Shown: in pieces, positions 39,001 through 42,000 of the stretch | Numbering within the stretch: the stretch's first letter is position 1 | Layout of the letters: each line of letters starts with the position of its first letter | Assembly (NCBI GenBank): GCA_036676395.1 | Contig: JAKFCY010000002.1 | Span: forward strand, 1,952,001-2,016,000 | DNA from: Bdellovibrio sp. | Lineage (GTDB): Bacteria > Bdellovibrionota > Bdellovibrionia > Bdellovibrionales > Bdellovibrionaceae | Direction: 5' to 3' | DNA length: 64,000 nucleotides | Made by a program: the position numbers

Positions 39001-42000
39001 GATTTATCTGAAGTCAGAGCCGCTGCAAATAAGCCGCGCGCAAACACATGGAGCCAAACTTCAACGGCAAAATCCGCAGAAGATAAAAATACCGAAGATC
39101 ATGTGCGCGAAGTGATTCCATTATGGGAGACAAAATCACTCAATCACCGTTCTTGGAGTGAACATGTTTATGATGAATTACCGACTCTTGGCCCTGCCTT
39201 ATTAGCGGCGAATCCAACAGATGCAAAAATATTTTGTCCGAATTTTTCTAATTTATCAGATAGTGAAAGAAAACAATTCTGGGCATTTTTTATTTCGAGC
39301 ATGGTTAAATTTGAAAGTGGCTTTGACCCCAAATCAGCTTACACCGAAGGTTTCAGAGACAACACGGGCCGCTACGTTATTAGCCGCGGGTTATTGCAAA
39401 TTTCAATGGAGAGCAGCAAAGGTTACCGCTGTGGATTTACATCATCGACAGAAATTCACAGCCCTACCAAAAATTTAAGCTGCGGGATTAAAATTCTAAA
39501 TCACTGGATGAAAAAAGACCAACGTATCGCCAGCCGTTCTGGTTTAGGCTGGAAAGGTGGCGCCCGTTATTGGTCGGTACTACGCGCAGGTAAAAAATCC
39601 TCGTATCAATCCATTGTTAAATGGAGCAACGACTTACCATTTTGTAAATTATAAATTGCGAAAACTTACGTAGGGATCAAACCCTGCGTAAGCCCTTGCA
39701 CTTGTGATTTAAGATTTTCAGTGACGTTTAAGAATTTCACACCGAACGAGTTCAGTTCAGTTGACCAAACAATTTCGCCTTCGACTTCTTCGTGCACGTC
39801 TGAAATTTTTAATTTAATTTTTTGCCCTTTGGCAAACTGTTGCTCTGATTTAAATGATAATCCGCCAACCGCTAATGTTTGTGAAGCGGCACTAATCACT
39901 TGATCACCGATTTGAATCATCACTTCTTTAGCTACGCTGTAACGTTCGTACTGACGTAATGATACGTTTTTAGTTTGTTTGCGACGTAAACCAAAAGCCA
40001 TCGCCAGGGGCATTAACATCATAAAACCAAACATCAATGCCTGACCCATTTGCCCGCCACTTGGTGGACCTTGATTTAATTCATTCGCGATGGCTTTTAC
40101 TAAACCGCAACCACCCGCCGCACCACCAGGTTCAGCCGCGGGCGCTCTGTCTTCGGTTTTATAAACGGGTGAATAACTTGGAGCCCAAGCAGTAGAACTG
40201 ATCTGCGCTTGTGCTATTTGCATAACTTTAAGCGCGTTCACACGCCCTGCAGTTTGCGAATAACCATTCAGGTATGAAGAAGTATCTATTCCTGACATAA
40301 CGACACCACGGATTTGATAAGCCGACAAGTGCGGTGCTTCACGAATGGCCAGCGCGGCAATACCTGCCACTAACGGTGCTGCCATTGAAGTTCCGCTCAT
40401 TCTTTTTTTACAGTAAAGACTTAGATTATTGATATCCGAACACTGGCTGCCAGGTATAGTACTATCAATTAAATCACCTGGTGCAAAGATATGAACATAG
40501 GTCGAACTGTAATTAGAAAAAGGGGCTCGACGGTCTTCGCCCTTTGAAGCTCCGACGGCGATATTACTTGGCGTATCGAACATCGCCGGATAAGTTGCCT
40601 GAACGCCCAGATTCATACCGGAATTACCAGCCGCAGTTACGATCACGACATCGTTATCATAAGCAAACTTGTAAGCATCATGCAGTGCACGTGAATAAGA
40701 TCCGCCACCCCATGAATTATTAATAACCTTTGCGCCGTTATTAACTGCATAGTACATGGCGTCGATGGCGCTAGCGGTGCTGCCACTGCCTTCACCATTT
40801 AAAAATTTTAACGGCATAATGCGAATTTTTGATTCGCGCACAGGGTTTTGAAAAATATCCTGCCCAGCACCGACAACGATTCCGGCCACGTGTGTTCCGT
40901 GATCAGCATCGTCATACATGTTTGGCGAATTATCGACGAAATTCCAACCGTTGATATCATCAACATAACCATTACCATCATCATCAACACCAGTGATGCC
41001 ATTCACTTCGGCCAGGTTTTTATAAACAGCATTTGCATCAGCAAACACCGCATGCTGAATATCAACACCCGTATCAATAACCGCAACAATAGTTTTTGTT
41101 GCTGATGCCGGCAATTGTTGAATGGCCCATGATTCAGCAATTTGCACCCACGAGATTGTTTGTGTGTAGGTATCTGTAGACGATGCAGCAACACCCATAG
41201 CTGTTGAGGCTTCTGTATATTCTGGTTCTAAACTTAAAATATAGTTGGGTTCAATAAATTCGACTTCTGGATTTGCTTTTAAAGCTTCAAGATTTGTCGC
41301 CGATACATCACTGATATGCATCATACCTGCTTTTTCAAACTTGCCTTGCACACTTAGACCTTTAAAAGCTGATAAAATACGCGCACCTTTTTCAGAGGCC
41401 AGTTTGTTAGCCACGGCCATTCCAGAAAGACCCGCTTTACCGCTGAGTCTAACTGAACTCAATTGAGGTTTAAATTTAATGATATATTCGCCAGAAACAG
41501 CGACGTTCTGCGCATGCACGACCTGCGATAGAAAAATGAGCCCCAAAGCTGTATAAAGCCAACGTACTTTAGTGAATGACGACATACTTAGATTATCGTC
41601 TGGTTAGACCTTAATCTAAAGGGTGAGATGAGCAAGTCTCACTATAAGACAACAAAGTCGTTGTCGATCTTGGGGTAATGTTTATAAAATAGAATTATAT
41701 GTCTCGATTGCAGAAAATATTCATTAGTGGTTTGGTTGCGTTTTTACCTATAGCTTTATCGATCTATGTTTTGATGATCGGTGTCTCACTCATCGAAAAT
41801 ATGTTTGGTCAATTTTTGCGACAAGTTTTACCTGCAGGAACATATATTCCGGGTTTTGGTTTTTTAGCGACAATCGCTTTTATTTTATTATTAGGGGTTT
41901 TAGTTGATAACTTTATCACGGCCACTTTTTTTCGCCGCCTGCAAGAAAAGCTGCGCGAAGTTCCGTTAGTTAAAGTTATTTATTCGCCGCTACGCGATTT

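Follow-up and report, generated by a model that had tools for sequence, protein, structure and literature searches.

A type I inner-membrane pre-pro-subtilase with a PilZ domain, orthologous to Bd2545, in Bdellovibrio sp.

The product of the gene located at positions 39666..41585 (minus strand) of the analysed window, a 64,000-nucleotide stretch of a Bdellovibrio sp. contig, is a type I pre-pro-subtilase of the inner membrane and belongs to the Bd2545 (Subt-TM-PilZ) family. The open reading frame specifies 639 amino acids plus a stop codon and is the orthologue of B. bacteriovorus Bd2545. The chain consists, in order, of a signal peptide, a prodomain, an S8 subtilase domain, an unstructured stalk, one transmembrane (TM) helix, a basic cluster and a PilZ barrel. 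Characteristic motifs are DTG (residues 171-173), HGTHV (229-233), AAGNSG (318-323), GTSMA (398-402), RRK (534-536), RQYER (544-548) and TLAVGG (570-575). Outside the catalytic core, the hydropathy profile features just two hydrophobic peaks, at residues 12-31 and 513-535. An earlier note on this DNA, which named no strand, had described a 639-residue chain with a signal peptide, a propeptide, an S8 domain, a membrane helix and a PilZ domain, and this description is borne out by Pfam, hydropathy and the AF2 model. We propose, as a reading that stands an even chance of being correct, that the protein is a tethered protease controlled by c-di-GMP through its PilZ domain. All features described below map to the minus strand.

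Judging from its sequence, the signal peptide (residues 1-25; 41511..41585) is of the Sec type, with K6 and R8 in the n-region, a hydrophobic core and a VHA-Q boundary after A25. An N-terminal 12-mer with a KD of at least 1.8 is found in 106 of 121 relatives. The prodomain (approximately residues 26-125; 41211..41510) has an I9-like beta-alpha-beta fold and closes with a conserved E-x-x-E-P-N-Y motif, in which E109, E112 and P113 are invariant in the alignment. The Pfam I9 propeptide match is weak (residues 34-119, E 0.12). In the AF2 model, strands and helices span residues 29-117, and the junction at 119-130 is of low confidence.

The S8A catalytic domain (residues 164-433; 40287..41096) matches Peptidase_S8 (PF00082) with an E-value of 5.1e-50 and 170.9 bits, against a cut-off of 21.8. 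The Asp-His-Ser order of the family is kept (D171 in DTG, H229 in HGTH, S400 in GTSMA), the oxyanion residue N321 lies within AAGNSG, and C382 and C392 form a pair. These four active-site residues are each present in all 121 aligned sequences, as are R544 and R548 of the PilZ domain, in agreement with the earlier claim that the catalytic motifs and the RxxxR arginines are conserved. The core is modelled with pLDDT values mostly of 86-98. When the subtilase and prodomain were compared with known structures using Foldseek, the top matches were pro-subtilases such as SUB1 (6e-26) and Pro-subtilisin, and further matches included deseasin MCP-01 (34% identity, rmsd 2.6) and thermitase. Taken together, sequence and fold strongly indicate a catalytically intact S8A protease.

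The protease is followed by a stalk of ~35 residues (residues 461-491; 40113..40205), which shows no secondary structure in the AF2 model (pLDDT 44-58) and carries a conserved linear motif, P469-x-Y471-x-P-V-Y475-K. P469 and Y471 are found in 121/121 sequences and Y475 in 115/121. Next comes the juxtamembrane motif G492-C493-G494-L-V-K (40095..40112), in which both glycines and the cysteine are each invariant (121/121); pLDDT falls below 50 in the region formed by the stalk and this motif. The TM helix (residues 513-535; 39981..40049), followed by the basic cluster R534-R535-K536, is recognised by hydropathy (maximum KD 1.72), by a modelled helix at 510-537 and by P526, which is kept in 121/121 sequences. 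Lysine and arginine are found once in the 20 residues that precede the helix and five times in the 21 that follow it, and in all 121 relatives the net charge is greater after the helix than before it, as expected from the positive-inside rule. Together with the Sec-type leader and the single TM helix, this distribution strongly indicates that the protease is periplasmic and the PilZ domain cytoplasmic, the topology that had been claimed before. The tether between the end of the helix and RxxxR measures 6-16 residues, with outliers of 18, 24 and 33.

The PilZ domain (residues 543-633; 39687..39959; PF07238, 2.3e-12, 47.6 bits versus a cut-off of 22.5) is modelled as a six-strand barrel with one C-terminal helix (mean pLDDT 85.2). 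Its two sequence signatures are R544-x-x-x-R548, at the N-terminal edge of the barrel, and T570-L-A-V-G-G575. R544, R548, G574 and G575 are each invariant in the 121 sequences, and so is the 25-residue spacing between R548 and G574. An additional arginine occupies position 543 in 60/121 sequences, the residue being leucine in the protein analysed here. The second motif, which reads [T75/S43/D3]-x-[S90/A31]-x-G-G across the family, departs from the canonical (D/N)xSxxG: T or S is found at the D/N position in 118/121 sequences, and alanine (A572) replaces serine in our protein and in 30 others, including its close kin. The earlier note was right to call the motif degenerate in this protein (TLAVGG), and went too far in holding that only GG is conserved in the family, as the serine is kept in 90 of the 121 sequences. 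The substitutions may weaken or abolish c-di-GMP binding.

Comparisons with solved structures argue for a barrel of the canonical type. All 23 Foldseek matches listed at E≤0.001 are PilZ domains, many of which were solved with c-di-GMP; the best are c-di-GMP-bound Alg44, MotI, MapZ, BcsA and YcgR, and the Alg44 structures 4rt0, 4rt1 and 4xrn align with TMq values of 0.70-0.81. Weakly binding or tetrameric PilZ forms (3dsg, 3ph1) appear only at ranks 43-45. A profile of the PilZ family retrieved a sole, marginal match among PDB sequences, MotI/YpfA (E 0.039), whose RRQYVR and NISAGG segments align to the RxxxR and second motifs of the family; a single-sequence phmmer search of PDB sequences with the PilZ part gave no matches at E≤10. 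A canonical-type PilZ barrel is strongly indicated, which may be of the c-di-GMP-binding type. No c-di-GMP binding study of any Subt-PilZ family member was found in the literature searched.

A sigma28/FliA-type promoter, identified by sequence match (TTTAG-N16-ACGATA; 41594..41620), ends 8 nt before the ATG, so that a leaderless or near-leaderless mRNA is predicted. The pattern TTWAG-N16-VCGATA occurs once in the window, where 0.22 matches are expected, and as 18 of 100 shuffled windows contain at least one match, the pattern alone is weak; a -10-like box is found upstream of the gene in 10/12 loci. The published FliA consensus is TTAAG-N16-CCGATA, and Bd2545 is flagged as having a FliA site and has a mapped TSS and a one-gene operon (Karunker 2013 supplements). 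According to the same data, Bd2545 is expressed at an RPKM of 11906 in attack phase versus 4.29 in growth phase. Fold changes of 0.62/0.58 on bdelloplast entry and of 0.13/0.10 in host-independent growth have also been recorded (Lambert 2010 supplement). These expression data concern the HD100 orthologue; in the organism analysed here, attack-phase expression is predicted. Given the promoter motif, and the experimental results obtained with Bd2545, the gene is probably transcribed alone as part of the attack-phase programme. The two genes would thus be alike in being monocistronic and in having a FliA-type promoter. They differ in that a 19-nt leader is annotated in HD100, whereas the promoter adjoins the ATG here. 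The adjoining FliA-type promoter is a new observation that the earlier note did not make, and it agrees with the attack-phase-only expression published for Bd2545.

The gene is flanked by genes for MgtE, an SLT-domain protein and DUF502, and no c-di-GMP metabolism gene is linked to it in the neighbourhood examined. Neither of two neighbours was retained as a functional partner: the SLT-domain gene is present in only 4/11 related loci, and MgtE, syntenic in 11/11, is convergent and functionally unrelated.

Of the 8000 candidates scored in the homologue search, 7306 satisfied E≤0.001, and conservation was derived from 121 aligned sequences. PF00082 and PF07238 co-occur in all 120 listed matches (561-671 aa), and the co-occurrence reported earlier therefore holds. 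One copy per genome is found in 95/401 genomes of the phylum, concentrated in Bdellovibrionales, the order to which the window belongs; the gene is present in 51/52, 22/27 and 10/10 genomes of groups f1, f2 and f6, respectively. The open frames encode 606-704 aa in all but two genomes (346 and 418 aa). Nearly all of the sampled Bdellovibrionales genomes carry the Subt-TM-PilZ gene once. The architecture itself is not new. It was catalogued in 2008 for B. bacteriovorus NP_969350.1 (Tripathi & Sowdhamini, PMC2605481) and mentioned in a 2020 review (PMC7288161), and the gene is another member of a catalogued but unstudied family; no functional study of a PilZ-subtilase or of Bd2545 was found in the literature searched. 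No Subt-PilZ protein is listed for HD100 other than Bd2545 (NP_969350.1), which matches our protein in size and in the order of its domains, is encoded by an 1887-bp gene, and is single-copy in the 26/26 genomes sampled from HD100's genus. The C-terminal 175 aa of our protein are ~35-40% identical to those of genus-g3 proteins. Compared with Bd2545, close relatives of our protein carry Ala at the position of the second-motif Ser.

The G-C-G motif, the TM helix with its invariant Pro and the basic cluster are strongly indicated to form a modular anchor tail, and the modularity of this segment, which the earlier note had not mentioned, is described here for the first time. The same tail ends PilZ-less S8 proteases, since 20 of a set of 268 proteins finish within 30 residues of it. 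Within the order, it is likewise the C-terminal tail of a Gly-rich 525-aa protein, of M10-like metalloproteases and of SCE4755/LPMO-like exported proteins. Tail matches number one to three per genome in 62/101 genomes of the order. A third tail-HMM match in the genome (E 0.017), a BatA/VWA-like protein that does not feature G-C-G, was discarded. In the S8 tree, the tail is constant and PilZ is patchy: PilZ-less relatives are nested among PilZ-bearing ones, and at least seven changes of the PilZ label are forced by well-supported branches. As the tail is common to PilZ-less S8 proteases and other exported proteins, PilZ appears as an add-on to it, and the nesting implies that PilZ is dispensable to the function of the protease in some lineages. 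It is strongly indicated that the tail is older and that PilZ was added onto its cytoplasmic end.

The tail has the tripartite composition of the MYXO-CTERM class (Cys motif, TM helix, basic cluster). It is located at the extreme C-terminus of the PilZ-less S8, Gly-rich, M10-like and LPMO-like proteins, and is followed by ~100 residues, the PilZ domain, in the protein analysed here. The distance from the Cys to the Pro of the TM helix ranges from 28 to 43 residues in S8 proteins. No NCBIfam CTERM model matched our protein, 10 PilZ-less relatives or 6 other tail-bearing proteins at E≤1, in a search in which HMMER filters may lose very short matches. The best NCBIfam match of the M10-like tail bearers, below the cut-off, is a family of 'myxosortase-dependent metalloprotease'. 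Candidate sorting enzymes were sought in the genome, which is 99.3% complete. Rce1/CPBP and the Mrt core were rejected, as neither PF02517 nor NF040914 gave any match, and CPBP genes (PF02517) do not co-occur with the protease in the order: they are found in only 52/101 genomes and in 2/10 genomes of genus g3, where the protease is present in 26/26. As no CPBP/myxosortase gene was found, the tail is not a MYXO-CTERM-type system. No exosortase was found either, and rhombosortase was set aside, as the three rhomboids of the genome fall below the cut-off (48.7 versus 84 bits).

The evidence strongly indicates that Sec export delivers the prodomain and the intact S8A protease to the predator's own periplasm, that the stalk, the G-C-G-L-V-K motif and one TM helix tether the protease to the inner membrane, and that the PilZ domain is cytoplasmic, with the RxxxR loop following the helix at a distance of just 6-16 residues. 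In the model that we favour, c-di-GMP would bind the PilZ domain, and binding would clamp the barrel to the base of the TM helix, because the RxxxR switch loop itself would be the tether to that helix. Clamping would change where the tethered protease sits, how it oligomerises or whether it is retained, and c-di-GMP would in this way set the timing of a step of proteolysis in the periplasm during the attack-to-invasion transition. The model is favoured by the catalytic motifs, the topology, the invariant RxxxR, the fixed motif spacing and the matches to binding-type folds, as well as by selection on the whole chain, kept at one copy per genome, and by attack-phase regulation. Against it stand the T or S found in 118/121 second motifs and the Ala for Ser in 31 sequences, including our protein. 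Moreover, one TM helix by itself conveys conformational changes poorly, the tether varies in length, the two sides are not linked by any modelled structure (pLDDT <50), and PilZ-less relatives are nested among PilZ-bearing ones in the S8 tree.

Other readings were weighed against this model. The PilZ domain may have ceased to sense the nucleotide, owing to its degenerate second motif, and could act as a c-di-GMP-independent docking module that pins the protease to an attack-phase machine, such as the flagellar stator or the base of a type IV pilus, and so fixes the site of proteolysis. We regard this as unlikely. TLAVGG, in which both canonical polar positions are changed, would fit such a role, as would the flagellar-motor-binding function of MotI, the only relative detected at the sequence level in the PDB, and membership of the gene in the FliA regulon; PilZ proteins of P. 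aeruginosa and Xanthomonas reportedly bind partners without binding c-di-GMP. However, the RxxxR arginines are invariant and the second-motif Ser is kept in most sequences, whereas the non-binding PilZ proteins known to us have lost RxxxR, and the modelled fold is much closer to PilZ domains of the binding type than to 3dsg or 3ph1. Least probable in our view is that there is no signalling at all, and that PilZ passively plugs or stabilises, on the cytoplasmic side, a membrane-anchored protease with a constitutive housekeeping role in the attack-phase envelope. The interleaving of PilZ-less paralogues and relatives on the tree and a neighbourhood free of c-di-GMP metabolism genes would agree with this; yet throughout the order the PilZ domain is kept intact in a single copy, its ligand-contact arginines do not vary and its motifs are evenly spaced in all sequences, which is hard to explain without a function related to a ligand or a partner.

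The tail itself may be a true sorting signal, in which the segment is cut at or near the invariant Cys by a membrane enzyme. The protease, perhaps lipid-modified, would then reach the cell surface, the TM-PilZ stub would stay behind, and PilZ would tie this processing or release to c-di-GMP. The tripartite tail with its Pro-containing helix, its occurrence as the actual C-terminal end of PilZ-less S8 proteases and other families of the order, its recurrence in most genomes of the order, the NCBIfam match of the M10-like passengers and a form like that of the Cys-type CTERM signals reported in a preprint by Haft are all consistent with this possibility. It is nonetheless rather improbable, given the internal location of the tail here, the long spacer, the lack of an NCBIfam CTERM match, the candidate enzymes rejected above and the patchy distribution of CPBP. 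A more specific version, which we consider quite improbable, is that the G-C-G-L-V-K/Pro-TM/basic segment is a new Cys-type Bdellovibrionales sorting signal that is processed by an enzyme outside the known CPBP myxosortases and onto whose cytoplasmic end PilZ was grafted in the Bd2545 family, so that cleavage or release would be licensed by c-di-GMP. The signal would be used by S8, M10-like, LPMO-like and Gly-rich exported proteins, and release of a very abundant attack-phase protease would be licensed, for instance, by a DgcB burst at prey contact. If true, this would be a second-messenger-gated sorting signal.

Returning to the tethered, c-di-GMP-controlled protease, its interest lies in the biology of the predator. 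c-di-GMP, made through DgcB, is reportedly required for prey invasion by Bdellovibrio, and we know of no defined output for any of its ~15-18 PilZ receptors. Almost all members of the order have a Bd2545-type protein, whose transcript ranks in HD100 among those most strongly specific to attack phase, and these are the only PilZ proteins known to us that have an enzyme as output domain on the other side of the membrane. If the model is correct, they would offer direct access to the timing of envelope proteolysis by the predator. The common G-C-G anchor tail, moreover, singles out a limited group of envelope-anchored hydrolases that is open to testing.

Several known systems resemble parts of this protein. 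Cys-type CTERM signals share with the G-C-G tail an invariant Cys in a short Gly-rich motif, a TM helix, a basic cluster and use by diverse exported hydrolases, and Synerg-CTERM shares an invariant Pro in a Leu-rich stretch. In contrast, the tail described here has a longer spacer, is non-terminal in S8-PilZ proteins and matches no curated model; the genome has no cognate Rce1/CPBP, and CPBP does not co-occur in the order. VesB of Vibrio cholerae, a GlyGly-CTERM rhombosortase substrate, is an exported serine protease kept cell-associated by a tripartite C-terminal tail; it differs in belonging to the trypsin family rather than S8, in having GlyGly and no Cys, in its dedicated rhombosortase and in having no cytoplasmic domain. 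Mycosins (MycP, TIGR03921, type VII secretion) are likewise exported S8 proteases held by a C-terminal TM helix, but have neither PilZ nor G-C-G and occur in another phylum. TIGR03921 is the best NCBIfam match of our protein, at 110.8 bits, which is far below the 278.75-bit cut-off and excludes membership.

The closest parallels in signalling logic are Alg44 and LapD/LapG. Alg44 of Pseudomonas aeruginosa, to which the PilZ model is structurally most similar, crosses the inner membrane once and couples the binding of c-di-GMP in the cytoplasm to the control of a process in the periplasm, and its single chain likewise features a cytoplasmic PilZ domain, one TM helix and a periplasmic domain. It differs in that PilZ is N-terminal and has a canonical DxSxxG motif, in that the periplasmic domain is HlyD-like, not a protease, and in that Alg44 acts within the alginate synthase complex. 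The one-chain, inside-out layout to which the earlier note drew attention is not novel, because Subt-PilZ had been listed in 2008 and Alg44 already has a layout of this kind. In LapD/LapG of Pseudomonas fluorescens, as in our model, cytoplasmic c-di-GMP governs a periplasmic protease. That system, however, divides the task between two proteins, a cysteine protease and a receptor that sequesters it and that combines a degenerate GGDEF-EAL part with HAMP and periplasmic domains. Neither PilZ nor S8 is involved, and the two proteins are not covalently joined; the S8 and PilZ content of our protein is not of the LapD/LapG type. Should the binding of c-di-GMP affect how the protease is processed, where it sits or whether it is released, Bd2545-type proteins would carry out within one chain the inside-out logic known from LapD/LapG and Alg44.

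The S8-PilZ ORF (639 aa) maps to the minus strand of the window (39666..41585). Its translation contains a Peptidase_S8 domain (residues 164-433; 5.1e-50) and a PilZ domain (residues 543-633; 2.3e-12), both scoring well over the Pfam gathering score, and a weak Pfam match to the I9 propeptide (residues 34-119). Outside the catalytic core, Kyte-Doolittle scanning revealed only two hydrophobic segments: an N-terminal leader (residues 12-31), which ends VHA-Q after residue 25, and a transmembrane (TM) segment (residues 513-535), followed by R534-R535-K536. The domains, the hydropathy and the motif positions, correctly placed by the earlier note, confirm its observation of an S8 domain, a membrane helix and a PilZ domain in one polypeptide; we add that, of the two His in HGTHV, the first (H229) is the catalytic one.

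An AlphaFold2 model built with 121 relatives (mean pLDDT 83.5) features a beta-alpha-beta prodomain (residues 29-117), a low-confidence junction (residues 119-130) and a subtilase core modelled with high confidence (block means 86-98 for the most part). These are followed by an unstructured stalk (residues 461-494, pLDDT 44-58), a short juxtamembrane helix (residues 495-503), a long helix (residues 510-537), and a six-strand barrel with a C-terminal helix (residues 554-633, pLDDT about 80-85). Foldseek matches of the whole model are pro-subtilases, such as Plasmodium SUB1, deseasin MCP-01 (34% identity) and thermitase. As D171, H229, N321 and S400 are invariant in the aligned family, the protease is expected, from its sequence, to be active. 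Net charge is higher in the 15 residues after the TM helix than in the 15 before it in 121/121 aligned members (means +4.46 vs -1.07), which puts the protease outside and the PilZ domain inside, as the earlier note had proposed; we consider this topology and architecture very probable. The evidence shows or strongly indicates an exported, catalytically intact pro-subtilase on a single-pass tether, with a cytoplasmic PilZ domain of the binding type.

Both domains are present in all 120 listed homologues, whose lengths range from 561 to 671 aa. Named sources among them are Bdellovibrio, Bdellovibrionota, Bdellovibrionaceae and Pseudobdellovibrio; the B. qaytius protein, among the matches listed, is 74% identical. 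When 401 genomes of the phylum were surveyed with the C-terminal 175 aa, 95 matched, with one match apiece, almost all from the order of the window's own genome, Bdellovibrionales. Within the phylum set, the groups f1, f2 and f6 matched in 51/52, 22/27 and 10/10 genomes, respectively; outside the order, one genome of the same class and one weak PilZ-only match were found. The "Subt-PilZ" architecture was tabulated in 2008 for B. bacteriovorus NP_969350.1 (PMC2605481) and is mentioned in a passage of a 2020 review (PMC7288161). NP_969350.1 is Bd2545 of strain HD100, listed as "subtilisin like serine protease" in a supplementary table of Karunker 2013 and termed a pilZ gene in the text of Lambert 2010. 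No functional or binding study of Bd2545-type proteins was found in the literature searched. The window gene is a further member of the family catalogued in 2008, to which the present analysis adds a conserved FliA-type promoter, the grafting of PilZ on a modular G-C-G tail that other exported hydrolases also use, and the exclusion of known sorting enzymes.

According to the supplements of Karunker 2013, Bd2545 is a one-gene operon with a mapped TSS and an entry "FliA site: yes", and its RPKM is 11906 in attack phase vs 4.29 in growth phase. A supplement of Lambert 2010 reports that the transcript drops to 0.62/0.58 on bdelloplast entry and is 0.13/0.10 in host-independent growth. The window gene is preceded by TTTAG-N16-ACGATA (41620-41594, minus strand), which ends 8 nt from the ATG and is related to the published FliA consensus TTAAG-N16-CCGATA. 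Nothing else in the 64-kb window matches TTWAG-N16-VCGATA (0.22 matches expected); at least one match occurs in 18/100 shuffles of the window, so the pattern alone is weak. A -10-like box (GCCGATAA, at most 2 mismatches) is found upstream of the gene in 10/12 loci of the genus, and a variant was seen by eye in a further genus locus, L007; for L008 the gene start used was incorrect. Attack-phase, FliA-type control has been measured in HD100 and is predicted for the window gene. The gene stands alone, convergent with a 260-aa SLT-domain gene (38872-39654) and divergent from a DUF502 gene. MgtE (37407-38792; like the SLT-domain gene on the plus strand) is the only neighbour syntenic across the genus, convergent with the protease gene in 11/11 genus loci; the intervening SLT-domain gene is confined to the window genome and its 4 closest relatives.

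Genome-wide, the FliA-like motif T[TA][TA]AG-N14-17-[CGA]CGATA[AC] occurs 104 times, vs 54-77 in 5 shuffles (e.g., at contig positions 2139835, 2096846, 1917863 and 551535, all on the minus strand). When an ORF of at least 80 aa lies downstream, the start codon is 5-10 nt past the -10 box in 12/34 cases, a pattern suggestive of leaderless mRNAs made in attack phase, most of which would encode signal-peptide proteins. Among this putative set are a small PilZ gene and three paralogues, each at least 1000 aa long, with a TTYQAKI motif common to their N-termini.

In the PilZ domain, R544, R548, G574 and G575 are each conserved in 121/121 sequences, and R548 and G574 are spaced by exactly 25 residues in all of them. 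The second PilZ motif is non-canonical: T (75 sequences), S (43) or D (3) stands at its D/N position, and S (90) or A (31) at its Ser position. The window protein (TLAVGG) belongs to the Ala572 subgroup. A PDB search with the family profile retrieved only B. subtilis MotI/YpfA (E 0.039), whose RRQYVR and NISAGG align to the two motifs. When the domain was modelled by itself (from 12 sequences; pLDDT 85.2), all listed Foldseek matches at E<=0.001 are PilZ domains, many solved with c-di-GMP, including Alg44 (TMq up to 0.81), MotI, MapZ, BcsA, PA0012 and YcgR; XC1028, a weak binder, and the tetrameric PilZ come no higher than ranks 43-45. We take this domain to be a PilZ of the binding type whose second motif is unusual, and we lean towards c-di-GMP binding, the case being weakest for the Ala572 subgroup, window protein included. 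Two more PilZ matches lie in the window, at about 6126-6440 (+) and 23887-24192 (-), i.e., contig positions 1958126-1958440 and 1975887-1976192; the whole 3.4-Mb genome has 12.

G492-C493-G494 (followed by L-V-K) and P526 of the TM helix are invariant in the family. A global search of 1.84 billion representatives, from which 268 proteins were stored, retrieved two kinds of relatives: proteins that include PilZ (about 620-670 aa), and shorter ones (about 490-550 aa) ending a few residues past the same G-C-G, spacer, Pro-containing helix and basic cluster. Twenty of the 268 terminate within 30 residues of this anchor tail. For the S8 part, a quick maximum-likelihood tree (75 of the 151 representatives, namely those of 440-760 aa; giants and fragments left out) places all 40 tail+PilZ rows and 16/17 tail-only rows in one clade (99% support), and the PilZ label needs 12 changes, well-supported branches forcing at least 7 of them. 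Hence the tail is a constant feature and PilZ a patchy one; the tree does not fix the direction of change. Giant proteins (1200-6577 aa), each matching the protease over two to four stretches, are also among the closest S8 relatives in the global library (P0123, P0125, P0128, P0150, P0166, P0191, P0236 and others). A well-supported PilZ-less subfamily (P0184, P0197, P0199, P0207, P0211 and P0227; one cluster member is named Pseudobdellovibrio sp.) combines the C-terminal G-C-G tail with an N-terminal lipobox-like ..QNC.. leader, and may therefore be anchored at both ends.

The protease would be held on a ~35-residue stalk at the predator's own inner membrane; because of this tethering, its substrates would have to lie in the predator's periplasm, unless the protease is released. 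The tether joining barrel and helix, 6-16 residues long in most members, would be the RxxxR loop. Binding of c-di-GMP would clamp the barrel onto the base of the TM helix, and could thereby change how the helix packs, whether the protein oligomerises or whether a processing enzyme gains access. Such c-di-GMP control of the protease is put forward tentatively, and three rivals have to be weighed against it. PilZ may be passive, a reading that its patchy occurrence favours and its invariant arginines speak against, or it may have a docking role independent of nucleotide, which the non-canonical second motif favours and the binding-type structural matches speak against.

Alternatively, the G-C-G tail may be a true sorting signal, its processing gated by PilZ. 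In form the tail resembles the Cys-type tripartite tails that passages of a preprint by Haft assign to CPBP "myxosortases". In the window's genome there is no PF02517 or NF040914 match, no exosortase was found and the rhomboids are generic only. Across the order, the occurrence of CPBP genes does not follow that of the protease (52/101 genomes; 2/10 in g3, the genus of HD100), and curated CTERM models gave no match. The tail is therefore not assigned to the MYXO-CTERM class, and is better described as a modular anchor in the membrane that has been conserved.

Only one further ORF of the window's own genome bears the tail, at its true C-terminus: a Gly-rich 525-aa protein encoded outside the window (contig positions 65357-66934, minus strand; 2001-3578 of extracted locus L013). 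It features a signal peptide and a tail of G-C-G-L-V-K, Pro-containing TM helix and basic residues, has no Pfam or NCBIfam match, and its gene adjoins a response regulator and a hybrid histidine kinase. Orthologues were found in 26/101 genomes of the order, and the tail was seen in 5/10 inspected loci, the window's own genome included. The tail profile A3, which covers both tail types, has 1-3 matches per genome in 62/101 order genomes. Ten matches are in ORFs of 201-298 aa, and the four inspected are two M10 matrixin-like metalloproteases (about 242 aa) and two SCE4755/LPMO-like proteins (about 243-253 aa); one further match is a PilZ-less S8 protease of 491 aa from the genus Bdellovibrio. 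Tail-bearing ORFs of other Bdellovibrionales lie at L025:209-937 (-), L029:215-937 (+), L026:235-963 (-), L027:195-953 (-) and L028:219-1691 (+) of the extracted loci. Although CPBP proteases do not co-occur, these passengers recall those carrying MYXO-CTERM in Myxococcota.
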